Part shown: in pieces, positions 1,810-53,329 of the stretch
How the letters are laid out: the number at the start of each line of letters is the position of its first letter
Numbering within the stretch: position 1 is the first letter of the stretch
Assembly: GCA_001787405.1 (NCBI GenBank)
Contig: MFWV01000011.1
Location: 48,857-112,856 of the forward strand
Direction: 5' to 3'
Length of the DNA: 64,000 nucleotides
From: Candidatus Pacebacteria bacterium RIFOXYA1_FULL_38_18
GTDB taxonomy: Bacteria; Patescibacteriota; Microgenomatia; UBA1400; PJMF01
Position numbers and translations under genes: made by a program
The notes under the pieces: model-generated
Seen by the model: the letters and a program-made list of their open reading frames with translations, nothing else
Databases searched by the model: none
Told to the model about the DNA's origin: nothing

Positions 1810-2087
1810 TTTTCCCCAAATGTGGAAAACTTTGTAGAAAACTCTGTGGATTATGTTTGGAAAACTGTGGATAATTTTGGGCAATTGTGTAAAGCCCTTG
1901 CATTTTTCCCCGCTTTTCCCTCACAATACACATAGTTTTTCAGGTGGTAAATCAAGAGAATCCACAATGCTTTTTATGTTTTTACTTGATAAAAAGCGCG
2001 GTTTTTCCCACTTATCCACCGTCTCTATTACTACAACAAATATAATTAAGTAATAAGAAGATAGGAATGAAAAAAATAAAATAAATC
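1810..2087. promoter_or_regulatory. oriC: candidate oriC: DnaA-box cluster plus AT-rich unwinding region between dnaA and dnaN
   Basis: TGTGGAAAA at 1821-1829 (rc TTTTCCACA). TGTGGATTA at 1846-1854 (rc TAATCCACA). TGTGGATAA at 1866-1874 (rc TTATCCACA, a perfect box). GAATCCACA at 1958-1966. TTATCCACC at 2012-2020. An AT-rich tract follows at 2040-2087. Confidence 0.6.
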
Positions 2088-33184: not shown

Positions 33185-33222
33185 ATAGAAGCTAAAATTA
33201 AAATGGCAAAAGAAAATAATTT

Positions 33223-34206: not shown

Positions 34207-35183
34207 AGAAACAAACAGTACTAGCTCATTCTGATGTAGCGCTAATTAAATACTGGGGTAAAAAAGACGTAGCAACTCAACTTCCAGAAAATAGCAGTGT
34301 CTCAGTTGCTCTAAATGGATTGGATACCATCACAACTGTAGAGTTTGACGATAAATTATTGGCAGACGACATTGTTATCCAAGGCAGTAGAGAAGCCAAA
34401 GAAGTAGAGCGAGTAGTTTTACATTTGGAAAGAATTAGAAACTTAGCCCAAATTAAAACATACGCAAAAGTTGTATCAAAAAACACCTTTCCCAAAGCAA
34501 CTGGGCTTTCTAGTTCTGGTTCTGGGTTTGCTGCTCTGACTTTGGCTGCAATTGGTGCTCTTGAACTGAAACTTTCCCCCAAAGAAATAAGTATTCTTGC
34601 TAGAAAAGCCTCTGGTACAGCTTGTCGTTGTGTGATGGGTGGTTTTATTAAGTGGCTCGCTGGAGATACATCAAGTTCTTCTTATTCAAAAACAATTTTT
34701 GATGAAAATTATTGGGATATTAGAGATGTAATTGCCATTGTTGATTTTGATAAGAAAAAAGTATCTTCTTCTGAAGGTCATTTATCAGCGCACTCAAGTC
34801 CGTTTTATCAAGTTCGCTTACAGCGAATTCCCAGTAAAATTAAAAAAATTAAACAATATATAAACGATAAAGATTTTTCATCCTTTGGCAAACTAATCGA
34901 ATCAGAAGCTTTGGAATTTCACTCAATTCTTCTGACAAGTAAACCCCCACTCATCGCTTGGTATCCTGGCACTATTGCGGTGATGAATCTTGTACAAGAA
35001 ATGCGAAAACAGGGTATTGAGGCATATTTCACCATCAATACGGGCTTTAATGTTCATATATTAACACTTCCTCAATTTGTAGATGAAGTTCAGAAGAGAG
35101 TTTCAAGTTTGTCATTTGTTCGTGATGTTATGAAAGCAACCGTGGGGGGTTTTCCCCAAAAATTGGATACCCACTTATTTTAA
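34203..35183 (+). CDS. mvaD: diphosphomevalonate decarboxylase family (MVD, or phosphomevalonate decarboxylase)
   Basis: 326 aa. ALIKYWGKKD, TGLSSSGSGFAAL and the GHMP fold. Overlaps the upstream gene by 4 nt. Confidence 0.85.
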   Translation: MKKQTVLAHSDVALIKYWGKKDVATQLPENSSVSVALNGLDTITTVEFDDKLLADDIVIQGSREAKEVERVVLHLERIRNLAQIKTYAKVVSKNTFPKATGLSSSGSGFAALTLAAIGALELKLSPKEISILARKASGTACRCVMGGFIKWLAGDTSSSSYSKTIFDENYWDIRDVIAIVDFDKKKVSSSEGHLSAHSSPFYQVRLQRIPSKIKKIKQYINDKDFSSFGKLIESEALEFHSILLTSKPPLIAWYPGTIAVMNLVQEMRKQGIEAYFTINTGFNVHILTLPQFVDEVQKRVSSLSFVRDVMKATVGGFPQKLDTHLF

Positions 35184-38815: not shown

Positions 38816-39523
38816 TTAGAGCAAGAGTAGTAGTAATGCTCCTATTCCCAGAGTGGCTAAACCAACTTGTAGATAATTTAGCCAGTCAGCAGGACCGCTT
38901 TTGTATAATTCTTCAGGATAATCAGGTTGTCCGTCCGCAACAGATGCGGAAGGTGTTGAGGTTGGAGCAGAAGTAGGCGTTAGTGTAGTTGTTGGTGTAG
39001 TAGTTGGTGTAGTCGTTGGCGTAGTAGTTGGTGTAGTCGTTGGCACTGGCTCTTCACAACAACTAGCAACTGTAGGATTGGCAATACAGGCATCTTTATA
39101 ATCTTCTACTGCACAGTATTTTTCTCCATCATCAGCAGTAATACAGACCAAGTCGCCAGCGCAGTCAGTATCGGTTCCACAAGGAGTGTAACCACACTCA
39201 CTAGGTTCAGCTGGCTCTAATACAGTAAAGGTCAAAGTACAACTTGATTGTCGAATAATAGAGGCTTCTGGGAAAGATTGCGGAGCACTAGGAGCTACTG
39301 GCTCTTGACTCAAGTATTGTTTTTGAGCAATCAATACGCCCACCAAACCAATAGCAAAAAACACGATCAGAATCAAAATTGTCCAGATTGTTCTGGCTAT
39401 GGGTGGTTTTTGCGGAGGAACAGCCCGTTCTTTGGCGTAACGCTTGGCAAATTCCTGTTGCTTTGGCGTTGAACTAGTCATTGGGGCTTGGTTGGCTGGT
39501 GGGTTTTGATAAGTGTTTTCCAT
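38816..39523 (-). CDS. cell-surface protein: N-terminal signal-anchor, Cys-rich module, (PTTT)n linker, conserved C-terminal GPADWLNYLQVGL-TM tail
   Basis: Start taken at MENTYQ, 4 nt after the upstream stop. PTTTPTTTPTTTPTTT linker. C-terminus KSGPADWLNYLQVGLATLGIGALLLLLL is paralogous to the tail of 40681..41589. Confidence 0.6.
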   Translation of the reverse strand: MENTYQNPPANQAPMTSSTPKQQEFAKRYAKERAVPPQKPPIARTIWTILILIVFFAIGLVGVLIAQKQYLSQEPVAPSAPQSFPEASIIRQSSCTLTFTVLEPAEPSECGYTPCGTDTDCAGDLVCITADDGEKYCAVEDYKDACIANPTVASCCEEPVPTTTPTTTPTTTPTTTPTTTLTPTSAPTSTPSASVADGQPDYPEELYKSGPADWLNYLQVGLATLGIGALLLLLL

Positions 39524-39527
39524 CAAT

Positions 39528-40544
39528 TTATTCACAAGTACTTGGTGTATAAGGTTCCCAATCACAGATAGTAGTGTTTGATGAGTTTGTATAACAAACA
39601 GCACATTGCACTGCATAACTTCCAGCTAGTTCAATGTCGTAACTTATTCCCCAGCTATTTGATATAAGTTGCAAAGGCGAATCGTGGTGATTACTGCCAC
39701 ATGGTTCCCATATTTTGAATGAATAGAAGTATTCATCATTATCTATGGGAGTAGTAGCCGAACAAACAAAATTAACAGTAGTTTCACCGGGTATAAAGCC
39801 AGCATCGTCTTCACCATTCAACGCAATATTTGTTCCACTAGTAGGATCTAACATTGTTATACTATGACATTGTGGACCGACGGGTGATGTAGGTGTGGGA
39901 GTAGATGTAGGTGTGGGAGTTGGTGTAACGGAAGGAGTTGGTGTTGGGGTTGGCGTGTTGTCGCAGGTAGAATCATATTCACAGGTACTATAACGAATTT
40001 TCTGCACTTGATAAGTGCCATTGGCCCCAGTGCAAAAATTACCATCTTTCATACAATCGAAAATCCAAATCTGGCACCTATCTGTTCCTACACATCTTGT
40101 GTCTACACAATGATCTGCATATTCGCTACAACCAGAAGGACAACTACTCACAATATCATCCTCAAATTGTGGTCTATGATAGCAAGCATTATTGTTTACG
40201 CTACCACCTGAAGGATAACTAGTTGGAGTGGGAGTGGGTTCTTCTCCTGCTTTAATAGGAGTGGGAGTGGGTTCTTCTCCTGCTTTAATAGGAGTGGGAG
40301 TCGGTTCTTCTCCTGCTTTGGTAGGAGTTGGAGTGGGAGTGGGTTCTTCTCCTGCTTTATAAGCCTGCTGGCGAACGTCCTGACTTTGTTTGGTTAAAAA
40401 TAAACCTACGGCCGCTCCTATAAGGAGCACTAATAAAACTATACCACCCATCCAGAGTGACAATGTTTTTTTTTGGGGACTAGAAAATTTACTAAAGTCT
40501 TTATTTGGTTGTGGACTGATAAAACTAGAATTATTTTCTGACAC
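39528..40544 (-). CDS. cell-surface protein: N-terminal signal-anchor, KAGEEPTPTPI tandem repeats, large Cys-rich domain
   Basis: 338 aa. TM GGIVLLVLLIGAAVGLFL, then QDVRQQAYKAGEEP shared with 40681..41589. About 20 Cys in the C-terminal half. Confidence 0.6.
   Translation of the reverse strand: MSENNSSFISPQPNKDFSKFSSPQKKTLSLWMGGIVLLVLLIGAAVGLFLTKQSQDVRQQAYKAGEEPTPTPTPTKAGEEPTPTPIKAGEEPTPTPIKAGEEPTPTPTSYPSGGSVNNNACYHRPQFEDDIVSSCPSGCSEYADHCVDTRCVGTDRCQIWIFDCMKDGNFCTGANGTYQVQKIRYSTCEYDSTCDNTPTPTPTPSVTPTPTPTSTPTPTSPVGPQCHSITMLDPTSGTNIALNGEDDAGFIPGETTVNFVCSATTPIDNDEYFYSFKIWEPCGSNHHDSPLQLISNSWGISYDIELAGSYAVQCAVCYTNSSNTTICDWEPYTPSTCE
40225..40360. repeat. 33-nt in-frame tandem repeat (about 4 copies) encoding KAGEEPTPTPI
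   Basis: GGAGTGGGAGTGGGTTCTTCTCCTGCTTTAATA recurs head-to-tail with one or two substitutions. Confidence 0.7.
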
Positions 40545-40680
40545 AGTGTTAATAATTCTTCGCTTTATTTCAAAACCATTTTTATATAAGTGAAGAATCT
40601 TTCTCCAGTATATAGAACTTTTTAGGTAAAGGTCAACTAAGAACGCTTGGGAATTTTTTTATTTTAATTGATGAGTAATT

Positions 40681-41589
40681 TTAAATGAAGAGCAGTAACA
40701 AAGCTCCAATTCCCAACATGCCCAAGCCAATTTGCAAGTATTTTAGCCAATCTTCTGGTCCGGTTTCAGGCAAAGTGCTGGGAAGAGTGGGCTGATCATC
40801 CTGATAGCCAGTGGTACCAGTGGTGGTACCAGTAGTCGTAGTTTCAGTATAGGCGAGAGTATCGGTATTTTCATCAGTCTCATCAGTTCTAGTATAGGCA
40901 AGAGTATCGGTATTTTCATCAGTGTCATCAGTGGTGCTAGTTGGAGTGGGAGGAGTTGGGGTAACAGTCGTTGTAGTAGTGGTGCTAGTTGGAGTGGGAG
41001 GAGTTGGGGTAACAGTCGTTGTAGTAGTGGTGCTAGTTGGAGTGGGAGGAGTTGGGGTGATAGTAGTTCCGCTAGTTGGAGTGGGAGTTGAGATGACAGT
41101 AGTTCCACTAGTGGGAGTGGGAATCGGTTCCTCTCCCGCTTTGGTAGGGTCTTCTCCTGCTTTAATAGGAGTGGGAGTCGGTTCCTCTCCTGCTTTGGTA
41201 GGGTCTTCTCCTGCTTTGGTAGGGTCTTCTCCTGCTTTAATAGGAGTGGGAGTCGGTTCCTCTCCCGCTTTGGTAGGGTCTTCTCCTGCTTTATAAGCCT
41301 GCTGGCGAACGTCCTGACTGATTTGAGTAAGATATAAACCAGCTCCACCACCTATGATGATAATCAATAATCCTATCAAGGCAATGATAGTGTTTTTTGA
41401 CAATTTACCCTTTTTCTTTGGTGGTTGAGTTGAAGAGGGGGTAGCAGTTTCTGATTTATTTGGAACTTTTTCCTCGTTCTTTGTTTGTGCGCTAGTTGGC
41501 TCGCTTATATTTTCCTTTGGAAGATCAGTCGGCAACTCTGGAGGCAAAGAATCTGTAGGCTGGGGTGTAGAACCAATAACGTTGATCAT
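40681..41589 (-). CDS. LPXTG-type cell-surface protein with KAGE(D/E)PT repeats and poly-Thr/Pro stalk
   Basis: N-terminal signal-anchor. KAGEDPT / KAGEEPTPTPI repeats. TTTTTTVTPTPPTPTS triplicated. C-terminus LPETGPEDWLKYLQIGLGMLGIGALLLLFI. Confidence 0.65.
   Translation of the reverse strand: MINVIGSTPQPTDSLPPELPTDLPKENISEPTSAQTKNEEKVPNKSETATPSSTQPPKKKGKLSKNTIIALIGLLIIIIGGGAGLYLTQISQDVRQQAYKAGEDPTKAGEEPTPTPIKAGEDPTKAGEDPTKAGEEPTPTPIKAGEDPTKAGEEPIPTPTSGTTVISTPTPTSGTTITPTPPTPTSTTTTTTVTPTPPTPTSTTTTTTVTPTPPTPTSTTDDTDENTDTLAYTRTDETDENTDTLAYTETTTTGTTTGTTGYQDDQPTLPSTLPETGPEDWLKYLQIGLGMLGIGALLLLFI
41105..41300. repeat. in-frame tandem repeats (21-nt and 33-nt units) encoding KAGEDPT / KAGEEPTPTPI, plus a thrice-repeated roughly 57-nt Thr/Pro unit at 40930-41100
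   Basis: GGTAGGGTCTTCTCCTGCTTT and GGAGTGGGAGTCGGTTCCTCTCC(T/C)GCTTTGGTA units. GGTGCTAGTTGGAGTGGGAGGAGTTGGGGTAACAGTCGTTGTAGTAGT occurs three times. Confidence 0.65.
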
Positions 41590-41644: not shown

Positions 41645-42757
41645 TTATGAACTAGAGAGGTGTAAAGAAGAAGTTATGGTTTGATATTTATTTCTGATAT
41701 TTATGAATATTGCTGCGAAAAAAAATGCCATAATCCGCGGTCTTATGAGGCGAACCAAAGAAGAATCATTTTTAATAATTAATTTGAGAATATTTAGTCT
41801 GATAAGAATTTTTTTAATTTTTGGTTCATATTTTTTAAGATGCCAAAACTTCAAAGGAGGAAACTCAGCGAACCACTCGATTGGCAATAAATGAGCCAAT
41901 ATGAGAATTTTCCAAGATGTATTTTTACTAATAAAACTTGGAGTTGAGTATCTAAAGAAACAATTGCTCAAAATTATCATCAACCAGGCCTCATTTTGAA
42001 ACTGATATTGTTTTGCTAATTGTAAAAAATTAGACCATTGACTTGGTTTTTTATAGGTTTGAGTTAATTTTCCGATTTCATAAAGCGTGCCCAGACCCGT
42101 TGCTAAATCATTGAATAAAAAACGAATGCACAAAGACAGTAATTGATAGTTTTTATTTTGAATGTGGTGATTGTGTTTTGTGTTGTTCAATAGTGCTGTG
42201 GAAAATTTCCGCACAATTAGGATCTCTTGCGCATTGAGAGTGCCAAAATGTGGATGTGCAATCATGCTATGAATATCAAGATTTAAATAACGAGCCTTAG
42301 AATAAGTAATTTCTTTGGGCGGATAAATGGTTTTTTTATAACCCTGATTGGTTAACCATTGATCAATAATCATCATGCCCTGCTTGTTGGTAAGCAAATC
42401 AAGATCATTAGTAAGAAATAATTGCTGATTTAGTTTGTTTTTAAAATCCTTAAAAAAAATACCTTTTATTTTTGTTTTCTCCAAAAAAGAAATTAGACGT
42501 TGTTTTTCTTTTTCATATAACAAGCTGGAAAAAATGCTATTTTTTTGATGTTTGATTAGTTTGTTTTTAAAAGATTTATTCAAATGTTTTTGACAATTTT
42601 GACAGTTTGTAAAGTGATCTAAGGCATGGAAAACTTTATTAAACATTGCTTTTTCATAGAGTTTGCTAGTGCTTTTTTTAACTAAATTGATTGGAGGACA
42701 AACAGAGGAATTGTTTTGCAATAAAAAAACCAAGATTTCTATATCGGCATTTAACAT
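41645..42757 (-). CDS. uncharacterised nucleotidyltransferase (pol-beta superfamily, NTP_transf_5-like)
   Basis: 370 aa. hhxDhDhh metal-binding motif TNDLDLLTN. Size and composition fit the PF14907-type family often found in peptide-modification clusters. No HMM was run. Confidence 0.45.
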   Translation of the reverse strand: MLNADIEILVFLLQNNSSVCPPINLVKKSTSKLYEKAMFNKVFHALDHFTNCQNCQKHLNKSFKNKLIKHQKNSIFSSLLYEKEKQRLISFLEKTKIKGIFFKDFKNKLNQQLFLTNDLDLLTNKQGMMIIDQWLTNQGYKKTIYPPKEITYSKARYLNLDIHSMIAHPHFGTLNAQEILIVRKFSTALLNNTKHNHHIQNKNYQLLSLCIRFLFNDLATGLGTLYEIGKLTQTYKKPSQWSNFLQLAKQYQFQNEAWLMIILSNCFFRYSTPSFISKNTSWKILILAHLLPIEWFAEFPPLKFWHLKKYEPKIKKILIRLNILKLIIKNDSSLVRLIRPRIMAFFFAAIFINIRNKYQTITSSLHLSSS

Positions 42758-42760
42758 AGA

Positions 42761-43702
42761 GTGATTATAATCGTTGTTATGATATCTGTTTTGATTGCTA
42801 CTAAAGAACGGCCAGATTCATTACTTGTGTGTCTTCAATCAATTGTCTCCAATCAATTCACTCAGTACGAAGTGATTGTTATTGATCAGAGCAATGTTGT
42901 CAGTGCGCTAATCAAACAATATCTTAAAAAGCATCATCGCATACATTTTTATCATCTGCCAAATAGGGGTAGGGAGAGGGGCAAAAGTTATGCCCTACAA
43001 CAAGGATTGATGAAAGCAAAAGGAGAAATCATTGCTTTTACAGACGATGACTGCATAGTGGATAAAAAATGGTTAAAGATTCTTTGGCAAGGTTTTGCCC
43101 AAAACAAATGTGATGGTCTATTTGGTCAGGTTTTACCATATCAGCCAGCTCAACATGCTGATGAAACTTGCCCCTGTACAATGCGTTTTGCAAAAAAAGA
43201 ATTTGTTCGTCAACCGCGCTACCATGTTTCCATTGGTTACGGCAATAACATGGCTTTTAGAAAGCAAGCTCTTGATGAGATTGGTTCACCAAAAACCTGG
43301 CTCGGTCCCGGATCAATTGGTTCGAATGCGGAAGATGCGGAGCTTACCCTACGGGCATTATTTGCCAAAAAAATTATTTTGAGATATCCAAAATCTATTG
43401 TTTATCACAATCGTTGGTTGAATGCTCAAGAAATGAAAGAACAGCAACTCTCTTACACTCAAGGAGAAGCGGCTTGTTATGGCTATTTTTCCTTTCTTGG
43501 ATCAAATTTTTGCAAACAAATATTAATTAGAGGAATCAAAGCCAATCTTCAGAATTTAAAACGCAATCTATTGTCAGTTTTTAGTTTTAACAAAGGTAAG
43601 CGGACGCGAAACAACGTTTATTGGAATTTTCGATCATTACTAGCTAGTGCACGAGGATTGAGTGTAGGATTTTGGTTTTTTTTAACAGAGTCTTTAAAAT
43701 AG
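42761..43702 (+). CDS. soluble glycosyltransferase family 2
   Basis: VLIATKERPDSLLVCLQSI, VIDQSN and AFTDDDC are GT-A motifs. No TM. Confidence 0.7.
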   Translation: MIIIVVMISVLIATKERPDSLLVCLQSIVSNQFTQYEVIVIDQSNVVSALIKQYLKKHHRIHFYHLPNRGRERGKSYALQQGLMKAKGEIIAFTDDDCIVDKKWLKILWQGFAQNKCDGLFGQVLPYQPAQHADETCPCTMRFAKKEFVRQPRYHVSIGYGNNMAFRKQALDEIGSPKTWLGPGSIGSNAEDAELTLRALFAKKIILRYPKSIVYHNRWLNAQEMKEQQLSYTQGEAACYGYFSFLGSNFCKQILIRGIKANLQNLKRNLLSVFSFNKGKRTRNNVYWNFRSLLASARGLSVGFWFFLTESLK

Positions 43703-43703
43703 T

Positions 43704-44699
43704 TTGATTAAAATTATGTCAATATCAGCTTCAATTATTATTCCAACCAAAGAGAGATTTGAAACTCTCCAGCATTGTTTATTGGCTACAATTAAACAAT
43801 TATCCAAAGAGGACGAAGTAATGGTGGTAGAAAATGGTCAAGCTTATCAAAAAACTAAACACTTAATTAATATTTTAGCCAAAAATCACCAAATAAGTTA
43901 TGTTCATGAATCACGACTTGGACCAGCTTTTGCTCGCAATAAAGGAATTAGTTTGGCTCGCAATGAAATCTTGATTTTTTTGGATGATGATTGTGTGCCT
44001 GGTCCGGGCTGGTTGAAAGCAATTAAAAAGCGTCATGAAAATGAAAAAAAACACCAGCAAACAGTGGTTTTTCAGGGAAAAATTAATTATGTTTATAAAA
44101 AATCGAATGCATTTGTTGAGTTATTTCATTTAAGAAATCGGATGGATTGGCAAGTAATTCGGAAAACTCCGGGATGGAAAATGGGGAAATTCATAAATTT
44201 TTTAAATGCTGGAATTTTTTCTGTTCGAAGGTCGGTTTTAGTTAAAAATAAGATTAAATTTAATGAACTTTTTTTTCCTTTTGTTGGTGAAGAGAGAGAT
44301 CTGACAGCGCAATTACATTTGCATGGTATTTCCATTGTTTATGCATCGGAAATACAAGTAACACATTACAAAGATAGAGGAAGCGTAGTGAATTCATTAA
44401 AAAGATCTTTTCAGGCGGGATTGGCACAAGAAATACTGAACGTTTTATATAAAACCAATCAATCAACAAAATCTTTGTTTAAGAAATCTTTTCGAAAAGA
44501 AAAAAATGGAATAATCGCTGAATTGTTAAAACAATTTAATCAGCAGTCACTATTTACCATTACAGGTATGATCATTACTTATTTGCGATTGAGTATGTTG
44601 GTCCTGGGAAGAGTTTATGGCAAATTTTGGTGTCTGTTGCAAAAAAACAAGCTTTATGAACATAGAAAAAAGCTATTTTTATCAATCACTAAGAACTAA
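43704..44699 (+). CDS. soluble glycosyltransferase family 2
   Basis: SIIIPTKERFETLQHCL and IFLDDDCVPGPGWL match the GT-A fold. No TM. One nt after the previous GT2 stop. Confidence 0.7.
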   Translation: MIKIMSISASIIIPTKERFETLQHCLLATIKQLSKEDEVMVVENGQAYQKTKHLINILAKNHQISYVHESRLGPAFARNKGISLARNEILIFLDDDCVPGPGWLKAIKKRHENEKKHQQTVVFQGKINYVYKKSNAFVELFHLRNRMDWQVIRKTPGWKMGKFINFLNAGIFSVRRSVLVKNKIKFNELFFPFVGEERDLTAQLHLHGISIVYASEIQVTHYKDRGSVVNSLKRSFQAGLAQEILNVLYKTNQSTKSLFKKSFRKEKNGIIAELLKQFNQQSLFTITGMIITYLRLSMLVLGRVYGKFWCLLQKNKLYEHRKKLFLSITKN

Positions 44700-45168
44700 T
44701 AAGCTTGCGATATAGATGTTTTAAAAAAGGATATTTATAAAGATTTTTTATTTTTAATAAATTTGGAAAATGGTGATTCAGTCGTGAATACCAAGTCAGA
44801 ATAAAAACAAAAAACCGCGAGCGATTATTTTCCAAAAAGATAGTATGCGAAGGATATATGATTTTTATAGCTTTTCCCATGAGTTTTTTAATATCAACCT
44901 GGTTATCATAATCTAATTTATTATCGCCCTTGGTAATAACATATTTTTTTTTAATAGCCATTAAGCGATGAAGAATTATTTGATTGTTTTTTTTAAAAGC
45001 TACAATATCGCCAACCGTATATTCTTGAGAATAATTAAGTTTTAAAACAACTTTTGCACCATGTTTAATTAAGGGTTCCATGCTATAACCCTTGCTAGTG
45101 GTTTGTATAATAAGCGAATGTTTATTAGTAATGAATTGAGTAATTAATGAAACATTTTTCATTGTCAT
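44689..45168 (-). CDS. S26-family signal-peptidase-like serine protease (Ser/His SipW/ER-type), no obvious TM
   Basis: GYSMEP (nucleophile Ser). ILHRL (His replaces the Lys of the KR box). KGDNKLDYDNQ (GDNxxxSxDSR-like). Start ambiguous; the ORF track gives 45234. Confidence 0.5.
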   Translation of the reverse strand: MTMKNVSLITQFITNKHSLIIQTTSKGYSMEPLIKHGAKVVLKLNYSQEYTVGDIVAFKKNNQIILHRLMAIKKKYVITKGDNKLDYDNQVDIKKLMGKAIKIIYPSHTIFLENNRSRFFVFILTWYSRLNHHFPNLLKIKNLYKYPFLKHLYRKLISS

Positions 45169-45185
45169 TGTGCATTGCTGATTTG

Positions 45186-46334
45186 ATGATTTTACTATAC
45201 ACGAACACAAATCAAGAGCATGATTTTTTGGCAAACAAATATGAGGACTATATAGTAACGGACAGTCAAGAAAAAACTGCAGTAGTATCTATTGCTTGCG
45301 GTTTTGAACATCGTGAGAAAGAAATTCCCAGCTTTGTTTTTAAAGAAAGTGTAATAGAGAGGTTTGGTTTATTTAGTGAGTTTTTCCGCAAAATATTAAT
45401 GGGAGTATTAAATACTCATGATGGAGCTTTATTGCATGCCAGTTCTATTGTTTATAAAAATCAGGGCTTTATTTTTATTGGTCATGAAGGAGCAGGCAAA
45501 ACAACTATTCGCAAATTACTAAATAACTACGTTTCTTTGGGCGATGATACAGCTATTATACGAATTAGAGGGGAAAAGACTTATCTATATGGTTCTCCAC
45601 TTTATCAACGAACTAAGCGTTCTTATCCGAATAAACGAGTTTTGATCTGTGGTATTTTTTCTTTAAAACAAGCAAAATATGCTCTAATTAATGATCTTGA
45701 TCTCAATCAGCAAGTGAAAGCGCTGTCGTCAAATGTTTTTTTATCTGGCTTAAAAGAATTTAACAATGAAAATAGAAAATTAAGTTTGACATTATTTACT
45801 TTGGGACAGCAACAACTTGTTCATAATTTATCTTTTGCCAAAACATCCCCAGTATCAAAAGTACTAAAAATATTTGCTCAAAAACCCTGGCAAAAAAAAT
45901 CAATCAAGAACCTATTGGTTCAAGCCAGCACTGTCTTTGTTCAAGAACTCCAAGATCATGTTGTTTGGTCGAAGGGTGTTGCCGATCGCGACTTTTTAAC
46001 TCAATGTTTGATAATTAATGAACATAGTTGGATTTTTGAATTCGGTTCACAGCGAATTTTGAAAGTAATAGCAGATAAAATTATTGGAAATCAAGAAGAG
46101 GCTTATCATCATTCTCTTGTGTTTAAAAAAATTAAACAATTCAAAGAAATCAAGGTTTTGCCTACGATAGTTGTTGTTCGAAAAGAAAATAATTTTGTAA
46201 TTATTGATGGCAATCATCGGGCATTGGCTTGGTATTTGCATAATAAAAATAATTTAACTGGAGAAATTTTGGTGTTAGTAGGAGATTTAAAAAATAATTT
46301 TAAAGAAAATAGTAAAATTTTTGCTTATTTATAA
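45186..46334 (+). CDS. HPr-kinase-like P-loop kinase fused to a C-terminal ParB/Srx-like domain
   Basis: GFIFIGHEGAGKTTIRKLL...LGDD fits the HprK C-domain pattern GxxGxGKS/T...hhDD. C-terminal VIIDGNHRALAWYL is ParB-like. Start ambiguous; the ORF track gives 45147. Confidence 0.5.
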   Translation: MILLYTNTNQEHDFLANKYEDYIVTDSQEKTAVVSIACGFEHREKEIPSFVFKESVIERFGLFSEFFRKILMGVLNTHDGALLHASSIVYKNQGFIFIGHEGAGKTTIRKLLNNYVSLGDDTAIIRIRGEKTYLYGSPLYQRTKRSYPNKRVLICGIFSLKQAKYALINDLDLNQQVKALSSNVFLSGLKEFNNENRKLSLTLFTLGQQQLVHNLSFAKTSPVSKVLKIFAQKPWQKKSIKNLLVQASTVFVQELQDHVVWSKGVADRDFLTQCLIINEHSWIFEFGSQRILKVIADKIIGNQEEAYHHSLVFKKIKQFKEIKVLPTIVVVRKENNFVIIDGNHRALAWYLHNKNNLTGEILVLVGDLKNNFKENSKIFAYL

Positions 46335-46369
46335 TTTTTGATTTTTTATAAAACTAATTAAGGTTGAAC

Positions 46370-46915
46370 AATTATTTTCAAAAACTACCGAACAACGTCG
46401 ATTGTTGGGAGTTTGGGCACATCCAGATGACGAATCACTCAATATAGAAGAAATTTTGGCTCTAGCAAACAAAGCTAAAATAAATACGCAAATAATTTGT
46501 CTTATGGAGAAATGGGCTTATCTCAAAATAGTGCCTTAGGGACTCGAGGGCGAGATGGGAAATCTGGCAAGAAAGCGATCGGTCGTGGAAGCTTTATTTT
46601 AGCGTTCTGGAACAGGACATAAAACGTCTTTATAAACATTCCAGAAAACTAACGATTTGGAAAAATATGCTAAAAGCAGATTTTCAAATAAGTATTACCA
46701 AAACAACTGATCAAAAAATAACGGCCTGTTTAGCTCACGTCAGCCAGTTGTCAGTTCTCAACAAACCAATCCCATTAAAAATAATTTTTAAAATGTTTGA
46801 TAATGAGTATTTACATCTAGTAACTGCACAAAACAAATATAATTTTCAATTTGTGAATTTTTTCACTCAAAGGTATAATTATCGTGTCAAAAACAAAACC
46901 GAAGGCTTTTCATAA
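46370..46915 (+). pseudogene. decayed LmbE/PIG-L-family deacetylase gene (no start codon, frameshift)
   Basis: Hand translation of 46378.. gives EQRRLLGVWAHPDDESLNIEEILALANKAKINTQIICLMEKW, with the PIG-L AHPDDE motif, ending in a stop. The reading frame of ORF 46667..46915 continues it after a frame change. Confidence 0.4.
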
Positions 46916-47216: not shown

Positions 47217-47242
47217 TTATCAAATAAAAATTAAAAAATTAT

Positions 47243-47341
47243 TTACTGGTATGATTCCAGAGTAAAAACATCTATTTCAATTTTTTCAACTTTTTCCGCT
47301 GGAGCCTTGTAGGCTTTTTTGGTTTTTTGGTTTTTGTTCAT
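47243..47341 (-). CDS. candidate 32-aa peptide (possible modified-peptide precursor)
   Basis: AGGAGA is 4 nt upstream of the ATG on the minus strand. Product MNKNQKTKKAYKAPAEKVEKIEIDVFTLESYQ. Convergent on pqqD-like; 50 nt downstream of the previous minus-strand gene. Confidence 0.4.
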   Translation of the reverse strand: MNKNQKTKKAYKAPAEKVEKIEIDVFTLESYQ

Positions 47342-47393
47342 AAAATCTCCTATTTTTATTTGGTATTTTATTACTTGATAAAGTATTTCATTT

Positions 47394-48317
47394 TTAAGAA
47401 TTAATGTCAACTTTGTATTGAAAAATATTTTTTTCATTTAATTGGTTATTAATCTTTTTTTTGTTCGAGAAAATCCCAATAAAATTTCCTTTGCATTTAT
47501 AAATTTGAGTATAACGGGCGATTTTAATATATTTTTCAAAAAATGAACGATGATCGATTGATGATTTTTTCAAACCAAAATTGACAATGACGTACTCACT
47601 AGATGCGAGAATTTTTTTAATAAAAATACTATTTTTTATCTTTGGAACAATAAGATGATCGACAAAGAGATCAACAATTATAAGACCATATTGCTTTTTA
47701 TTTTGCGAAGTATATGCAAAAGCATCAGCTTGAATTAATTTAATTTTAGAAATTTTTGATCCAAGAAAACTTTTTCGCAAGGGTAAAAAATATTTTTTAG
47801 CTACTTTAATCATAATGGGAGAAATTTCTACTACATCGCTGGAGATTTCAAGACTAGTCAATAATTCCAATGGAATTACTGCTCCGCCCCCACCTAGCAC
47901 TAATGCAGAGCGTTTTTGAGGTTGATTTTTTTTAATTAATTTACGAATGAAGTCTAAATACAACCAAGAATTATGATTTTTTAAATAAATAGAAGAATAA
48001 GATACATTAGATTTCGGCTGGCAAATTGTTCTCAATGATTTGGATGGATGTAAAGGAAAAAAACGATCTCTAACAATGAAATGTTCCTTATTTTTTTCGA
48101 TTATTTCTTTTTGAAAAACAGTTATACCTTTAGTTAACCCTAAAAAAACTAAAATAAGAATAATATTAATAAAAACCAAAGTAATAACGACGAAAATTTC
48201 TAAGGGAAGTTTAAATACTAAATTAAAAATTAACCAAATGATGAATGAAGATAAAAAAAATAAGATTTTTTTATAACCAATAGAGGTTTTGGTAATCCAA
48301 AAAGGTTTTATTTTCAT
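47394..48317 (-). CDS. membrane-anchored spermidine-synthase-like (PABS fold) protein
   Basis: Two N-terminal TMs. VLGGGGGAVIPLEL glycine-rich motif. GLIIVDLF. Confidence 0.55.
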   Translation of the reverse strand: MKIKPFWITKTSIGYKKILFFLSSFIIWLIFNLVFKLPLEIFVVITLVFINIILILVFLGLTKGITVFQKEIIEKNKEHFIVRDRFFPLHPSKSLRTICQPKSNVSYSSIYLKNHNSWLYLDFIRKLIKKNQPQKRSALVLGGGGAVIPLELLTSLEISSDVVEISPIMIKVAKKYFLPLRKSFLGSKISKIKLIQADAFAYTSQNKKQYGLIIVDLFVDHLIVPKIKNSIFIKKILASSEYVIVNFGLKKSSIDHRSFFEKYIKIARYTQIYKCKGNFIGIFSNKKKINNQLNEKNIFQYKVDINS

Positions 48318-48362: not shown

Positions 48363-49112
48363 TCAATGACGAACCAGAACATTTTTTTTATAAGCTTCTA
48401 TAGCCCTTATTCCATCATTTTGAATAAGTTTTCCTTTTTCCAGCCAAATGATTCTCGTGCAATGATCTTTTAGATAATCCAACCAATGACTGACGCTAAT
48501 AATTGTTTTACCTTGTTTGTAAAATTGATTGATTTTTTGCAAAGATTTTTTTCTAAACTCTTCATCTCCCACAGCTATTGCCTCGTCCAAAAGTAAAATA
48601 TCTGGATCAGAGTGAACAGCAATAGAAAATCCTAGTCTCAAGGACATTCCAGAAGAATAGGTGTAAAGGGGAGAGTCAATAAATTTTTTTAGGCCGCTAA
48701 ACTGAATAATTTTTTTATATTTTTTTTCTATTTCTGGTCTCGTCATGCCAACAATAAGTCCATTGAGAAAAATGTTTTCTTCTCCAGTGAGTTCAGGATG
48801 AAAACCCGCTTCAAGTTCTATTAATGAAACAATTCTTCCTTTAGTGATAATTTTTCCAGTTGTGGGAGCGGTTATGCCAGCGATCATTTTGAGAACAGTT
48901 GTTTTTCCAGATCCATTGGGCCCAATGATTCCCACTTTTTCTCCACTATATATTTCGAAAGAAACATCTTTTAGAGCCTCAAATTTTTCTCTAGATTCCA
49001 GTCCCAAAAATGATCCTACCAGAGTTGGTTTTTGGTGTTTAAGAACGTATTTTTTACAGACTTTTTCAAAATAGATAACTGTTTGTTTTTTGCGTTTCAT
49101 TTTTACATCCAA
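48363..49112 (-). CDS. ABC transporter ATP-binding protein, polysaccharide/teichoic-acid exporter type (Wzt/TagH-like)
   Basis: Walker A GPNGSGKTT. Signature YSSGMSLRLGFSIAV. Walker B ILLLDEAIAVGD. Confidence 0.85.
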   Translation of the reverse strand: MDVKMKRKKQTVIYFEKVCKKYVLKHQKPTLVGSFLGLESREKFEALKDVSFEIYSGEKVGIIGPNGSGKTTVLKMIAGITAPTTGKIITKGRIVSLIELEAGFHPELTGEENIFLNGLIVGMTRPEIEKKYKKIIQFSGLKKFIDSPLYTYSSGMSLRLGFSIAVHSDPDILLLDEAIAVGDEEFRKKSLQKINQFYKQGKTIISVSHWLDYLKDHCTRIIWLEKGKLIQNDGIRAIEAYKKNVLVRH

Positions 49113-49858
49113 TCATCAAAATATTTTTGTTCTTTTTTAAATACCAGAATTCCCAGAATGGTAATTATGATCGTAGAGAAAATTGGCAACCAAAGAGCGT
49201 CTGGAGAAAGAAGATAATCTTGAATACCAAAAGAAACTCTAAACAGCTGAATGATAGCAGTGAGTGGATTTAAAAATAAGATTAGTTTAATTTTCTCTGG
49301 AATTAACTGAATTGAGTAAATGATTGGAGTGGCATAAAACCAAATAGGAATTATGGCTCTGACAAGAAAACTCATGTCTCTAAACTTCACATTAAGACTA
49401 GCAAAGAATAAAGAAATGCCGATTGTAAAAATAAAAATCCAAAAAATTGCCAGAATGAGTGTGAAAAAATTGATCATGGTTAAAGAAAATGGAAAAACCA
49501 AAATAAAGCCCACTATAAGATGAAAGAGATTTGATAGAACCAAAGAAAGAATCAGTGATTCTCTAGGAAAAACTGCTTTTTTGATCAAATGTCTTTCATC
49601 GACAAACAAAGAAACAGCTTTGGAAAAACTGATTGAGAAAAAATTCCAGGGCAAAAGTCCTAGAAAAAGATATAAAAAGTAATTTTCAGTTCTAATTCCT
49701 GGGAAAAATTGCAATACAAACCCAATAACCAACATTTGCAATAAAGGGTTGATTATCAGCCACAAAAACCCCAGTACCACATGTTTATATCTACCCTTGA
49801 GCTCTCTGGTAGTTAGCGCAAGCGTAAAATCCAGCCATCTTTTCCATTTTTTTATCAC
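49103..49858 (-). CDS. ABC-2 type transport permease (Wzm/TagG-like)
   Basis: 251 aa, 6 TM. Overlaps the cognate ATPase gene. Confidence 0.75.
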   Translation of the reverse strand: MIKKWKRWLDFTLALTTRELKGRYKHVVLGFLWLIINPLLQMLVIGFVLQFFPGIRTENYFLYLFLGLLPWNFFSISFSKAVSLFVDERHLIKKAVFPRESLILSLVLSNLFHLIVGFILVFPFSLTMINFFTLILAIFWIFIFTIGISLFFASLNVKFRDMSFLVRAIIPIWFYATPIIYSIQLIPEKIKLILFLNPLTAIIQLFRVSFGIQDYLLSPDALWLPIFSTIIITILGILVFKKEQKYFDDWM

Positions 49859-49871
49859 CCAATTTCCTTTT

Positions 49872-51002
49872 TTAAAAATTTTTTACAGCATCAGAGATAG
49901 CAATTATCTTATTCTTCCAACTGTTTGCAAGGGAAAGTTTTTTTTGTTTAGTTTTTTTGTTTTTAGCATGTTTCTCATTCAACAGAGAGCTTATATGTTC
50001 TTGCCATTCTTGGGAAGAGTGGCCTATTTTAATCAAATCTATAAATTTCTTCAGTTCAATTATGGGTGTAGCAATTACTGGTTTACCTAAATAAAAATAC
50101 TCAAAAATCTTCATGGGATAGGAGTATTGATTGGATTTTAAGGCAATATTGTAGGGAATCATACAGACATCAAATTGCTTGATGATATTTGGTAACTCGC
50201 GACGATTAGTGCTTTGGCCAAAGAACACGTTTGGTAGTGTTTTAAGCTTTCGGTTAGTCTCGAAATCGTCGGTAGCTTCAAGATCTTGCCTTGGTCCCCA
50301 AAAAACAAATAACCATTGGGGATTCTGTTTGATCAATCGATGTAGGAGTGCAAAATCTAGGCGGTAGTCAACCGAACCAACATAGCCAATGATAGGTTTG
50401 TTTTTGGGAAATTTTACTTTTGTTTTTAGAGGTCGTTGAAAATCATTGAGTCTGAACCCCTGGGGAACAATGGCGGTGGGTTGTCTAGTTTTTGAGTGAA
50501 GTTTGGCCAATACTTGAGAGTTAACGAAGAAGAAATCAGAGTTTTTGATCAATTTTTTTTCTTGAATTCGCAGTAATTTTCTCAATTTTATCTCGCAATG
50601 CCAGACATAATCCACGCAGTCATATAGAGAGATCAGTTTGGGATAGAAAATCTTTATTTTGGGGTAAAACCAAAAGAGGGAATCGAAAATCCATAAGACA
50701 GTGTGCTGTTTTCCACGACCATAGCGAATTAACAAATACCAAAGATTTAGCAATTGATTGAGTTTTTCTATCCATGCAAATCGGCGAAAAGGAATGAGAT
50801 AACGAGGTTGGTAGGCTAACAGATTGGCTTTTGATGGAAAGGTATTTAGTGGTCGTGGTTTAAGAAAAAACCTGGCATCAGCATTGATGTAAGCCACTAC
50901 TAGGTTGTTTTTAGCCAGCTCCAAGCAAGTTTGCATTTGATAATCAGCAGACCAATTCCAAGGTAATTGAAAGGGAATGATGATTAAACTTTTTTTAAAC
51001 AT
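49872..51002 (-). CDS. glycosyltransferase family 1 (GT4-like)
   Basis: IGYVGSVDYRLDF, FDVCMIPY and GKPVIATP are GT-B C-domain motifs. Start at internal Met; the ORF track gives 51032. Confidence 0.7.
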   Translation of the reverse strand: MFKKSLIIIPFQLPWNWSADYQMQTCLELAKNNLVVAYINADARFFLKPRPLNTFPSKANLLAYQPRYLIPFRRFAWIEKLNQLLNLWYLLIRYGRGKQHTVLWIFDSLFWFYPKIKIFYPKLISLYDCVDYVWHCEIKLRKLLRIQEKKLIKNSDFFFVNSQVLAKLHSKTRQPTAIVPQGFRLNDFQRPLKTKVKFPKNKPIIGYVGSVDYRLDFALLHRLIKQNPQWLFVFWGPRQDLEATDDFETNRKLKTLPNVFFGQSTNRRELPNIIKQFDVCMIPYNIALKSNQYSYPMKIFEYFYLGKPVIATPIIELKKFIDLIKIGHSSQEWQEHISSLLNEKHAKNKKTKQKKLSLANSWKNKIIAISDAVKNF

Positions 51003-52581
51003 GATTTGTTGTCTTTTGGTCAAATAAAGCAAGGCCTACATATAGAAAAAAATATGAAGAGAGTTCTGGATGATTGAGAAAGATGGGATAAAACATGGCA
51101 CACAGTAAATAAATGCCGGCAGCCAAGTTATATTCTTTGATAATGCCAGTTTTTAATCCCAAAAAAAATGGTTTGACGGTCAAAAAGCCAAATAATAAAA
51201 AGAGCGTTAGACCAACAATTCCGGTTTCGGCTAATAATTGAAAAAATAAATTATGCGGATAAGTAGGATCAAAGGCAAGTTGCTCTCCTTTAAATTCAGT
51301 TGCTAAATAATAAGGAGAAAGATTGATTCCCACTCCGAACAACGGATTATCCAACGAAAGGCGAGTGGCGTAGTACATCATGCGCAAGCGATAGGTAGCA
51401 CTACCATATTGAGTAAATACGTCTGATAAGGTTTCTATTCGGCGAGCTAAATAAGGGGCTAGGGCAATAGTAATGATTATTAAAATCGCAGCGAAAACAC
51501 CCATTACTTTTGACGGAATCCTTATTTTATTTTTTTTATTCGATTGCTGCCAGCGCTTCCAACTCCAAAAAGCTCCCACCAACCAGATGCCATACAAAAT
51601 TCGACTACCAGTAAAAACCAAGGCTAGACTACCCAAACCAATTGATAAAAGAGTAATTATTTTTGAAGCATTAATAATTCTTTTTTTACTCAAAAGAGCG
51701 GGAAGCAAAATAGCCATTTGCATCAATAAAAAAGTACCTAGAATGCTGGGTTCAAAAAAAGTACCGGCAAGTCTTAATAAACCTCTGTTTTCCGAAGATA
51801 AAATACCAAGTTGGGCTCCGGGTAAGTAAACCTCAATGTCTTTTCCCAGCGGTCCACCAGCCAAGCGTTGAACAAGCACCCAGCCAGCTTCAAACAATAA
51901 CACGGCCACAACAACGCTAAAAATAATTTTTCTCAATTGAGTTTTCTGTTTGGCAAATAATAGAAAAGGTAAAGCTATCAGCATCATCATTCTGACTAGT
52001 TGCAAGGAGGACAATAGACCAATCTCAGGAACAATGCTGAAAGTGCCACTCAAAATAGTCCAAACAATGAACAAAAAAAACAACCAAAGCGATTTGTTTT
52101 TTTGAAATGATAACTGAATTTGCTTGGCAGTCTGTTTGCCACGCAAGTACAAATAACCCAATAAACCCAAGAAAATATCTGCAATATAGATTGGAAAAAA
52201 ATAACTAATATCAAACCACGCCCAACGTTCTATATCTTCTTTGGGAAGCAACATTATTTGATAGGCTCGGCCTTTTGGAAATAAAAGAGTGGCAATCAAT
52301 CCAGCAAAAAGTGATAATTTCAAATTTTTGGTGATGCGATAAATTATTAACCAATAAAGGAAAGTAAATAAAATGAGAGTGCGATTGCTTGTGCTAAAAT
52401 ACAGGCTAACATAATAAAGGAGTGTAACAAAAAAAAGCCTGAGCGAAGGAGCTGAAACCATTACAATGGTTCGCCCAATAAAGCTTTTTGATATGGTACG
52501 CAATAGTTTCATGAAGTTCATTATACCTAAACGTTTTTTGGGAAAATTTAATATCTTTGACCTGGTTATAGCGGTTGCCAT
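50995..52581 (-). CDS. polytopic membrane protein, O-antigen ligase/polymerase (Wzy_C)-like
   Basis: 528 aa, more than 10 TM, with a periplasmic loop in the C-terminal third. The true start is probably an internal Met (about 52461) because of divergent overlap with 52466..53329. Confidence 0.4.
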   Translation of the reverse strand: MATAITRSKILNFPKKRLGIMNFMKLLRTISKSFIGRTIVMVSAPSLRLFFVTLLYYVSLYFSTSNRTLILFTFLYWLIIYRITKNLKLSLFAGLIATLLFPKGRAYQIMLLPKEDIERWAWFDISYFFPIYIADIFLGLLGYLYLRGKQTAKQIQLSFQKNKSLWLFFLFIVWTILSGTFSIVPEIGLLSSLQLVRMMMLIALPFLLFAKQKTQLRKIIFSVVVAVLLFEAGWVLVQRLAGGPLGKDIEVYLPGAQLGILSSENRGLLRLAGTFFEPSILGTFLLMQMAILLPALLSKKRIINASKIITLLSIGLGSLALVFTGSRILYGIWLVGAFWSWKRWQQSNKKNKIRIPSKVMGVFAAILIIITIALAPYLARRIETLSDVFTQYGSATYRLRMMYYATRLSLDNPLFGVGINLSPYYLATEFKGEQLAFDPTYPHNLFFQLLAETGIVGLTLFLLFGFLTVKPFFLGLKTGIIKEYNLAAGIYLLCAMFYPIFLNHPELSSYFFLYVGLALFDQKTTNHV

Positions 52582-53329
52582 TTTATTAATTTTTGGTTCG
52601 TTTTTATGGCTGAGAGTTTCCAGAAAAACTGAATGGATTTCATTGCGAATGGTTGTCTCAAATGATGAATGGTGGTACGAGGGGGCAGCTCCTCAATGGT
52701 GGTACACGGATGGATTGACTGCTGGCCAAACAGCCAAGAATACTTTTGGAGAAGTAATGGCAGAAATTACCAATGTACAAAGTTTTGATATTGGCAGTTA
52801 TCGCAGGAGAGTTTTTATTGATCTAAAAGTTAAGGGATATTTTGATACCAAACGAGGAATTTATATTTACAATTATCAGCCATTACAAATCGGCAAACCA
52901 CTTGACCTAACATTTGGTAAAAATAATTTACGAGGAGTTGTCACTTATATCGAAAATGCCCCAGAAGATTTTATAGAAAAGACTATTGAAGTATATATTC
53001 CGGCAGTACATTTATGGGTGGCACAGTCATATGAAAAAGGCATGCAAGTCAAGGATTTGCAAGGTAGAATTTTGGCTGAAATTGCTTCTGTAACAATTAC
53101 TCCCACCACTGCTCTAGAAATAACTGAGATTTTTCCTGGTGTTGCAGAAAAGAAGTTTGGCCCCGAGCAATTTTATGATTTAAAACTAGTGGTTAAGATT
53201 AAAACTTTTGAAAGTGGAGGAGTTAATTATTTTGTTGATCGATCAGCCATCAAAATAGGTGAATACATCTGTTTTCAATTTCCACAAACAACTGTTCGTC
53301 AGGCAGAAATTATTGGGATTATAGAGTAA
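52466..53329 (+). CDS. hypothetical N-terminally anchored protein
   Basis: 287 aa. TM FNIFDLVIAVAILLIFGSFLWL. Start uncertain. Confidence 0.45.
   Translation: MVRPIKLFDMVRNSFMKFIIPKRFLGKFNIFDLVIAVAILLIFGSFLWLRVSRKTEWISLRMVVSNDEWWYEGAAPQWWYTDGLTAGQTAKNTFGEVMAEITNVQSFDIGSYRRRVFIDLKVKGYFDTKRGIYIYNYQPLQIGKPLDLTFGKNNLRGVVTYIENAPEDFIEKTIEVYIPAVHLWVAQSYEKGMQVKDLQGRILAEIASVTITPTTALEITEIFPGVAEKKFGPEQFYDLKLVVKIKTFESGGVNYFVDRSAIKIGEYICFQFPQTTVRQAEIIGIIE

Follow-up and report, generated by a model that had tools for sequence, protein, structure and literature searches.

A 32-residue candidate precursor peptide of an LPP-like pathway in Candidatus Pacebacteria

A small open reading frame (ORF) of 32 codons lies on the minus strand of a 64,000-nucleotide stretch of DNA from Candidatus Pacebacteria bacterium RIFOXYA1_FULL_38_18 (contig MFWV01000011.1). 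The whole of this stretch is called the window below. The ORF neighbours genes for a PqqD-like protein, an HprK-like kinase and a signal-peptidase-like protease. It probably encodes the precursor of a ribosomally produced peptide with post-translational modifications (RiPP), made in this bacterium of the Candidate Phyla Radiation (CPR) by a pathway similar to that of the linear polyphosphorylated peptides (LPP), the clusters of which are located in capsule loci of Bacilli (Popov et al., Nat Commun 2026; PMC13381572). The gene itself, its conservation, the selection acting on it, the co-occurrence of the enzymes, the gene fusions and the register of the hydroxyl residues are direct observations.

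The small gene and its start signal

The features of the ORF and its upstream region are as follows.

47243 to 47341, minus strand: proposed precursor peptide gene, 32 amino acids plus a TAA stop (47245-47243), product MNKNQKTKKAYKAPAEKVEKIEIDVFTLESYQ
47346 to 47351, minus strand: Shine-Dalgarno sequence AGGAGA, 4 nt before the ATG of the 32-aa ORF
47382 to 47410, minus strand: promoter-like sequence TTGACA-17-AATACT with a TG extension, 10 of 12 consensus matches, straddling the stop codon of the upstream gene

The minus strand was read directly between positions 47100 and 47600. The AGGAGA at 47351-47346 is followed by a TTTT spacer (47345-47342) and an ATG (47341-47339), precisely as had been described in an earlier note on this DNA, which was made from the letters only. 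The leader of MNKNQKTKKAYKAPAEKVEKIEIDVFTLESYQ contains two lysines, one further residue, Y11, two residues and P14, followed by EKVEKIEI, and the tail carries the hydroxyl residues T27, S30 and Y31.

Public annotation of the region contains only a 64-aa form of the same frame (47243-47437), the hypothetical protein OGJ37523.1. The earlier note had also held that this longer ORF has no ribosome binding site and overlaps its upstream neighbour by 44 nt, and both statements are confirmed. Its ATG is not preceded by a purine-rich stretch (…aataaccaattaaATG), and it runs 44 nt into the upstream gene, which encodes a 307-aa protein and stops at 47396-47394. The N-terminal extension is not conserved, since MKKIFFNTKLTL… of the window and MEIVTLDLILDK… of a related locus, L011, are unrelated. 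In four other related loci (L005, L016, L021 and L022) an in-frame stop codon is situated 0-7 codons 5' of the aligned start, which makes the long form impossible there. The unconserved extension, these upstream stops and the purine-rich stretches found before the short start in all loci checked (see below) together identify the 32-aa form as the gene. The 32-aa sequence is absent from the protein collection, and a search with the 64-aa form returned that protein alone. No Rfam match covers the small ORF.

The peptide gene is convergent with the PqqD gene, as the earlier note stated. The distance of 27 nt given there is a difference of coordinates; the two stop codons are in fact 26 nt apart (47217-47242). 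The promoter-like sequence at 47382-47410 could, by its match to the consensus, provide a separate transcript of the peptide. The region contains six such sites and 4.9 are expected from shuffled sequences, so that their number is not above chance. A weak terminator-like hairpin (7 bp, three of them GC) followed by a run of T is present on the plus strand at 47301-47317. It sits 85 nt past the PqqD stop codon and within the peptide ORF, so that transcription of the PqqD operon could run into that of the convergent peptide gene.

Conservation and selection

Relatives of the cluster were gathered in three ways: through the kinase, through an alignment of PqqD proteins that was compared with metagenomes, and through a PqqD profile search combined with contig look-ups. 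The peptides were then located by running a peptide profile over all six frames of every fetched locus. Fifteen distinct peptides of 22-39 aa, that of the window included, were found in syntenic clusters, 14 of them in other, divergent loci. The hosts are Pacebacteria (the window), Beckwithbacteria (L011), Shapirobacteria (L013), Roizmanbacteria (L095) and unbinned CPR contigs. Identity to the window proteins across the relatives is 30-49% for the kinases and 29-54% for the PqqD proteins. The window is identical in sequence to contig MFWY01000010.1 of a Candidatus Pacebacteria metagenome-assembled genome (GCA_001787375.1). Over this region four contigs that belong to the same species show 100% identity, and they are uninformative on conservation.

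Start signals were inspected in 13 of the 15 loci (the window and 12 others). In each of the 13 the aligned start is preceded by a purine-rich stretch that resembles a Shine-Dalgarno sequence, and in 12 this stretch has a strong core of the GGAGG or GGGGG type, which in the 11 loci other than the window is located 4-9 nt upstream. The weakest signal is that of L095, an AAGGAA positioned 2-3 nt from a GTG.

The N-terminal two-thirds of the peptides are conserved, and the tails are variable. Over the 16-codon leader block KKxYxxPxEKVEKIxI of nine peptides, the proportion of synonymous differences (pS) is 0.85, which is saturated, that of nonsynonymous differences (pN) is 0.27, and pN/pS is 0.32; pN is lower than pS in all 36 pairs. 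The earlier note had proposed conservation of the frame in relatives and a dN/dS-type ratio as a check on its gene, and its proposal is borne out by the retention of the frame in 14 other loci and by the low leader ratio. The recurrence of the ORF, its start signals, the upstream stops, the purifying selection and the lack of an Rfam match make it very likely that the 32-aa ORF is a real protein-coding gene under selection. A conserved leader joined to a variable tail is the anatomy of a RiPP precursor. Most of the CPR precursor genes are either uncalled or called at the wrong length.

The leader and the PqqD-like protein

All 15 peptides have a YxxP motif near the N-terminus, which in the window peptide is formed by Y11, K, A and P14 and is preceded by KK. 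At the level of sequence the peptide thus carries the KKxYxxP motif that is bound by discrete RiPP recognition elements (RREs). The PqqD-like protein of the window is a candidate for such an element. Its best matches in the Protein Data Bank are LppB, the RRE of the LPP clusters (9x8z_B, E=0.003), and PbaB1 (9x90_B). An Asn and an Asp of the window protein align to N33 and D70 of LppB, which in 9x8z secure the leader at its Pro kink and its Tyr, respectively, and both residues are invariant in six CPR homologues. The LppB residue numbering was verified against V35, C39, I56 and F74 of the published description.

RREs of the paeninodin type have Gly and Gln, the Trp-binding type, at the positions where the CPR PqqD proteins, like LppB, have Asn and Asp. 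Because of these residues the CPR PqqD is, judging from the alignment, an RRE of the Tyr-binding type, which fits the invariant Tyr of the peptides. A profile of the CPR PqqD proteins fails to separate LppB from the B1 proteins of lasso clusters and gives no placement inside the LPP RRE clade. The suggestion of the earlier note that the PqqD-like RRE binds the leader of this peptide gains support from the KKxYxxP motif, from the matching Asn and Asp, and from the PqqD gene travelling together with the peptide gene through the rearrangements described below.

The tail and the register of its hydroxyls

When the peptides are anchored on the Pro of YxxP (P), 11 of the CPR peptides are long enough to include P+15, and 10 of these have a Ser or Thr there. 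The enrichment has a binomial probability of 5e-9 against the composition of the peptides themselves, a value that ignores the relatedness of the orthologues and hence overstates their independence. P+15 is also the register of the mapped phospho-Ser3 of LppA (from Pro-13 to Ser+3). A Ser, Thr or Tyr is present among the last four residues of all 15 peptides. The earlier note had pointed to the tail hydroxyls as substrates of the kinase, the nucleotidyltransferase or the glycosyltransferases, and analogy together with the test of the register speaks for this assignment.

The peptides extend by 1-8 residues past P+12, the position that is equivalent to the Bacillota cleavage site, and by at most nine residues after the conserved leader. 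A Thr occurs at P+11 in seven of the 15 and may, to judge from its position, mark a cleavage site that leaves 3-7 residues. Many tails, when inspected by eye, read as a hydroxyl residue that is followed by Asp or Glu or is placed at the very C-terminus. Examples of the tails are …SDAI, …SDY, …ISD, …NSD, …SEC, …SEF, …VIS, …VQS, …IQT, …LAT and …RGY.

Genes of the cluster

The genes that surround the peptide gene in the window are as follows.

41645 to 42757, minus strand: PF14907 (NTP_transf_5) nucleotidyltransferase-like protein, counterpart of LppN and PsmN; E=4e-15, 56 bits against a cutoff of 31; DLD motif
42761 to 43702, plus strand: second GT2 glycosyltransferase
43704 to 44699, plus strand: GT2 glycosyltransferase, adjoining the module in almost all related loci
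44689 to 45234, minus strand: signal-peptidase-like serine protease of the archaeal/SipW type (S24/S26); PF00717; TIGR02228 (sigpep_I_arch) 49.7 bits, cutoff 51.85
45147 to 46334, plus strand: HprK-like P-loop kinase, 395 aa; precomputed Pfam match to ScmC (PF27840), weak match to TIGR04355 (HprK_rel_B)
46348 to 46915, plus strand: decayed PIG-L gene (GlcNAc deacetylase), found by tblastn with the intact PIG-L of L005, L006, L011 and L021
46932 to 47216, plus strand: PqqD-like discrete RRE, 94 aa; PF05402, E=2e-11; sub-threshold matches to lasso PqqD chaperone models
47394 to 48317, minus strand: membrane protein with a spermidine-synthase-like (SAM-dependent transferase) domain, PF01564, directly upstream of the peptide gene
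48363 to 49858, minus strand: ABC-2 exporter, consisting of an ATPase (48363-49112, PF00005) and a permease (49103-49858, PF01061)
49872 to 51032, minus strand: GT1, glycan set
50995 to 52581, minus strand: Wzy_C, O-antigen-ligase-like, glycan set
52466 to 53329, plus strand: DUF4330, glycan set

The kinase has a GxxGxGK[ST] P-loop and an LGDD motif, both of which are invariant in the CPR homologues. A Foldseek search with its AlphaFold2 model, the confidence of which is low (pLDDT 56), matched the folds of phosphoenolpyruvate carboxykinase and HPr kinase, which lends the assignment weak support. A kinase profile run against the PDB sequences gave generic P-loop matches alone. Residues ~300-395 form an extra C-terminal domain with an invariant DGNH motif that is common to the CPR HprK-like kinases. 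This domain has a weak Foldseek match to the N-terminal domain of Spo0J/ParB (69 residues, probability 0.9) and, on the strength of the model, may be a ParB/sulfiredoxin-like nucleotide-binding domain.

The protease probably starts at the ATG at 45168. Its Ser (in GxSMxP), His (HR) and Asp (KGDN) are kept in six CPR homologues, and it is the probable leader peptidase. The DLD motif of the PF14907 protein is present also in L013. The ABC-2 transporter accompanies the module in L005, L006, L021, L022 and L094-L099, and is the probable exporter of the cluster product. The gene for the spermidine-synthase-like protein recurs in L005, L006, L007, L094, L095, L097, L098 and L099. The GT1, Wzy_C and DUF4330 set, possibly a part of the peptide pathway, recurs beside the module in related loci.

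PIG-L is located between the kinase and PqqD genes and is intact in eight related loci; it is absent in L013, L094 and L099. In the window it is a pseudogene, in which the N-terminal 58 residues, a short middle piece and the C-terminal 118 residues lie in three frames and ~200 nt are missing. The annotated 82-aa ORF at 46667-46915 is the C-terminal remnant of this gene.

Linkage, rearrangements and fusions

The peptide gene is convergent and just past PqqD in the window and in L005, L011, L013, L094, L096, L098 and L099. L021 has it upstream of the S24 protease gene and L022 directly upstream of PqqD; in L095 it sits between the ABC genes and the GT2 gene. Throughout these shifts of place and strand it stays in a module with the genes for PqqD, the kinase and the protease.

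Gene fusions tie the parts of the pathway together. Three lineages have the S24 protease and NTP_transf_5 in a single fused gene, namely L007 (4484-5731), L009 (6168-7439) and L012 (177-1649), and a 476-aa NTP_transf_5 gene of L095 (3656-5086) is by its appearance a candidate for a fourth such fusion. An ABC ATPase is fused to the protease in L022 (5584-6591), and OGV92686.1, taken from the supplement of Popov et al., has the same architecture. The ABC-S24 fusion suggests that removal of the leader is coupled to export. In L012, which has the kinase, PqqD and the S24-NTP-transferase fusion, no peptide was found in the sequence covered; the contig ends 176 nt away.

Several related clusters have a different composition. 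A more distant CPR cluster in L009 (8713-11246) contains a fusion of a QueC-like PP-loop ATPase with PqqD, along with a radical-SAM/SPASM-like enzyme and an ScmC-like kinase. The same locus has two small genes in tandem, in which a KKKYxKPSIK motif occurs (…SKYVKPSIKKNIKVHF… and MKKSNNQKLIQAKKKYTKPSIKTSKIKINIQTWY). In L022 the peptide gene lies alongside a QueC-like gene, a pyridoxal phosphate-dependent decarboxylase and a methyltransferase, and no kinase was found in the sequence covered. The Patescibacteria contig Hain_H41 (L007/L008) carries an ScmC-like kinase, PqqD and the S24-NTP-transferase fusion together with YcaO, nitroreductase-family, sulfatase and phosphoadenosine phosphosulfate-reductase-like genes; the peptide profile found no YxxP peptide there. 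In high-GC soil contigs, NTP_transf_5, a short ScmC-like kinase, PqqD, a radical-SAM/SPASM enzyme and S24 stand in a row (L042, 3838-8015; also L037 and L047). This soil cassette is related yet different, and it is outside both the CPR and the Bacillota-type GC content.

The proposed pathway

By combining these observations with the biochemistry of the LPP systems of Bacillota and of lasso peptides, on which the steps of binding, phosphorylation, glycosylation, cleavage and export are modelled, it is possible to outline how the peptide would be processed. In a heterologous host, LppK adds up to four phosphates to the core Ser3, and LppS cuts after Thr-1 solely when LppB is present (PMC13381572). 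In the pseudomycoidin system, the kinase PsmK, in which a DD pair is essential, phosphorylates the C-terminal Ser, and the PF14907-type protein PsmN is required for the addition of a hexose to the phosphate (PMC6993621). The window kinase keeps the DD pair that corresponds to the essential pair of PsmK.

The 32-aa peptide would be translated from its own Shine-Dalgarno site. The PqqD-like RRE would then bind the KKAY11KAP14 segment, its Asp holding the Tyr and its Asn holding the Pro kink, and would offer the short tail to the HprK-like kinase. The kinase would phosphorylate a hydroxyl ~15-16 residues past Pro14, most likely that of Ser30 and possibly several times. The P+15 register is in keeping with a molecular-ruler model, in which the RRE positions the substrate for the HprK-like kinase. 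The PF14907 NTP-transferase-like protein and the GT2 enzymes might then put sugar on the phosphate or on the peptide. The archaeal-type signal-peptidase-like protease would remove the leader in an RRE-dependent manner, leaving a product of ~3-7 residues, and the ABC-2 transporter would export this small product.

Several points weigh against such a pathway. The window peptide is the sole exception to the P+15 register, as it has Glu29 at +15 and Ser30 at +16, and the kinship of the orthologues, mentioned above, reduces the force of the register statistics. Four orthologues stop at P+13 or P+14, where the Bacillota spacing would leave a 'core' of one or two residues; the cleavage site, or cleavage itself, may differ from that of Bacillota. 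The residue at P+2 is acidic in the window peptide and is a hydrophobic pocket residue in the LppB structure. After YxxP the CPR leader reads xEKVEKIxI and not the VLxHQxIxFET of Bacillota. A profile of 10 Bacillota leaders gives the CPR peptides 0-5 bits and aligns over KKxYxxP alone; no homology is claimed for the whole leader, because this profile sees nothing beyond that motif. The assignment of the kinase is based on the precomputed Pfam match and the low-confidence model. Finally, LppN was inactive in the heterologous host, and the final LPP product is not known even in Bacillota (PMC13381572).

Alternative explanations

The peptide might serve as a carrier or primer. Its phospho-Ser would then anchor a glycan that is joined through a phosphodiester and assembled by the NTP-transferase-like, GT2 and GT1 enzymes, the Wzm/Wzt-like ABC-2 transporter would export the glycopeptide, and the S24 protease would clip the leader at the membrane, giving a surface glycoconjugate anchored on a peptide of 3-7 residues. 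This explanation overlaps with that of a RiPP precursor. Only what becomes of the product and what it does are different; it would not be an antibiotic-type natural product. In its favour, the CPR module is always found within the glycan set (ABC-2, Wzy_C, DUF4330, GT1 and GT2) and the Bacilli have their clusters in capsule loci. The ABC ATPase-S24 fusion of L022 and OGV92686.1 and the PsmN-dependent hexose on the phosphate of pseudomycoidin point in the same direction. The glycan genes, on the other hand, may be mere neighbours, and none of the LPP systems has been seen to make a glycopeptide. The window moreover contains genes for undecaprenyl-diphosphate synthase and the mevalonate pathway, and a lipid carrier is therefore available and needs no replacement. 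On balance a carrier peptide is unlikely. If it were true, these episymbiotic bacteria would possibly make use of the glycoconjugate on their surface. The ABC-protease fusions allow a direct test of the link proposed here between the peptides and glycan export.

It is considerably less probable still that the ORF encodes a small protein that is conserved for some unrelated role, such as that of a regulator or of a chaperone partner of PqqD, and that never undergoes modification. The very short tail, which is almost absent in four orthologues, would suit such a protein. A conserved leader with a variable tail is however the pattern of a RiPP precursor, and the hydroxyl residues in the last four positions (15 of 15) and at P+15 (10 of 11) speak against such a protein. 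Also against it are the YxxP motif with an RRE that has the matching Asn and Asp, and the strict co-occurrence of the peptide with the kinase and the peptidase.

There is very little to recommend the possibility that the true product is the annotated 64-aa OGJ37523.1, or that the ORF is a chance frame. Gene callers did pick the 64-aa form, and short ORFs are abundant in AT-rich DNA. The extension, however, is unconserved, is without a ribosome binding site and overlaps the upstream gene by 44 nt. The orthologue stops just 5' of the short start and the purifying selection at the codon level also count against these readings.

A lasso precursor of the paeninodin type, with the kinase and NTP-transferase as tailoring enzymes, is the least credible alternative, in spite of a YxxP leader, PqqD, HprK-like kinase and PF14907 protein typical of such clusters, since no cyclase was found among the window ORFs of 220 aa or more or in the related loci and no B2 protease within ±10 kb or in the related loci, and since a tail of at most nine residues cannot give a ring of 7-9 residues and a threaded tail.

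Other features of the window

Three adjacent Pro/Thr-rich repeat proteins with KAGEEPTPTP repeats are encoded on the minus strand at 38816-41589. One of them, of 302 aa, has the C-terminus …LPETGPEDWLKYLQIGLGMLGIGALLLLFI, an LPXTG-type sortase signal. The overlapping ORFs on both strands of this segment are by-products of the repeats. The genes dnaA and dnaN are located at the start of the window (319-3194), and a replication origin is therefore probably near. The undecaprenyl-diphosphate synthase gene and three genes of mevalonate-pathway GHMP kinases/decarboxylases lie at 13240-13938 and 32318-35183.

Comparison with known systems

The tailoring part of paeninodin-type clusters (PadeK/PsmK and PsmN) shares with the window an HprK-like kinase, a PF14907 protein, a discrete PqqD RRE and a [Y/W]xxP leader. 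It differs in that the window is without the macrolactam synthetase and the B2 cysteine protease, and in that the linear peptide is far too short for a lasso. Neither an Asn-synthetase-like cyclase nor a B2 protease was present in the Pfam annotation of ±10 kb or in the related loci, and no lasso cyclase turned up when all ORFs of 220 aa or more in the window were examined. A lasso core was rejected by its length, as at most nine residues follow the leader, compared with a core of about 15-25 aa with an Asp or Glu at 7-9.

Two further systems were considered and rejected. For pyrroloquinoline quinone (PQQ), there are no radical-SAM or PqqB/C genes near the peptide, and the TIGR03859 PqqD model gives 14 bits against a cutoff of 46. 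For mycofactocin, there is no MftC, the GT2 proteins score 70-71 bits against the MftF cutoff of 280, and the tail ends in …ESYQ, not in Gly-Val-Tyr. In the SynChlorMet system (ScmC/ScmD; TIGR04248, PF27840), ScmC is matched by the kinase and the ScmD model weakly by PqqD (E=1e-4). The window cluster has none of the Scm radical-SAM/SPASM enzymes, which are present in the more distant soil loci L042, L037 and L047.

The peptidase-containing ATP-binding transporters (PCATs) of class II bacteriocins and lanthipeptides carry an N-terminal C39 cysteine protease on an ABC half-transporter. The fusions in L022 and OGV92686.1 resemble them in that a leader protease is joined to an exporter ATPase. Here, however, the protease is a Ser/His/Asp enzyme of the S24/S26 type and is C-terminal on an ABC-2 (Wzt-like) ATPase, and in the window the two are separate genes.

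The closest likeness is to the LPP clusters. Their core comprises a SipW-like signal peptidase I (SpI), LppS, the RRE LppB, the HprK-like LppK, the NTP-transferase LppN and an exporter, and has no lasso cyclase; the precursors are 35-200 aa long and contain YxxPxVLxHQxIxFETxxS (PMC13381572). The window cluster has likewise an archaeal-type SpI-like peptidase, a discrete RRE, a kinase of the HprK-like kind and a PF14907 NTP-transferase; it is without a lasso cyclase and is set in a polysaccharide locus. The family to which its peptide belongs also shares the N-terminal KKxYxxP and the RRE with a Tyr-binding Asp and a Pro-fixing Asn. Most of the CPR peptides that reach P+15 have a hydroxyl in that register too, but the window peptide has its Ser30 at +16. 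The S24-like protease gene is located 1.7 kb from the PqqD gene, a co-localisation as in LPP. A profile of the CPR proteases gives the Bacillota LppS proteins of Supplementary Data 1 48-60 bits, slightly above the housekeeping archaeal-type peptidases.

The differences are as follows. The CPR precursors have 22-39 aa (32 in the window), compared with 35-200 aa, and 1-8 residues beyond P+12, compared with a core of about 45. The exporter is an ABC-2 transporter (Wzm/Wzt-like, with a separate ATPase) and not an MsbA-like LppD; within ±10 kb no fused permease-ATPase that resembles MsbA was found. A GT2 enzyme is nearly always present in the CPR loci, PIG-L and the spermidine-synthase-like membrane protein are frequent, the kinase has its extra C-terminal domain, and the S24-NTP-transferase and ABC-S24 fusions occur. 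The phylum is Patescibacteria/CPR and not Bacillota, to which the authors describe LPP as restricted (PMC13381572). An unstudied singleton in their Supplementary Data 1, a Microgenomates ABC-ATPase-SpI fusion beside an RRE, has the architecture of L022 (PMC13381572).

The window system is thus an LPP-like pathway that shares the defining gene set, yet it is not a plain member, because the leader block, the size of the precursor and the type of exporter fail the descriptors of the family. It would represent an LPP-type sister system in several CPR lineages, in which RiPP pathways have seldom been recognised, and would extend the family beyond Bacillota. The CPR precursors are among the shortest of those that depend on an RRE. 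With a modified part of only a few residues and with accessory enzymes (GT2, PIG-L and NTP-transferase) in tight linkage, the CPR systems may allow the mature structure to be solved more easily than those of Bacilli do.

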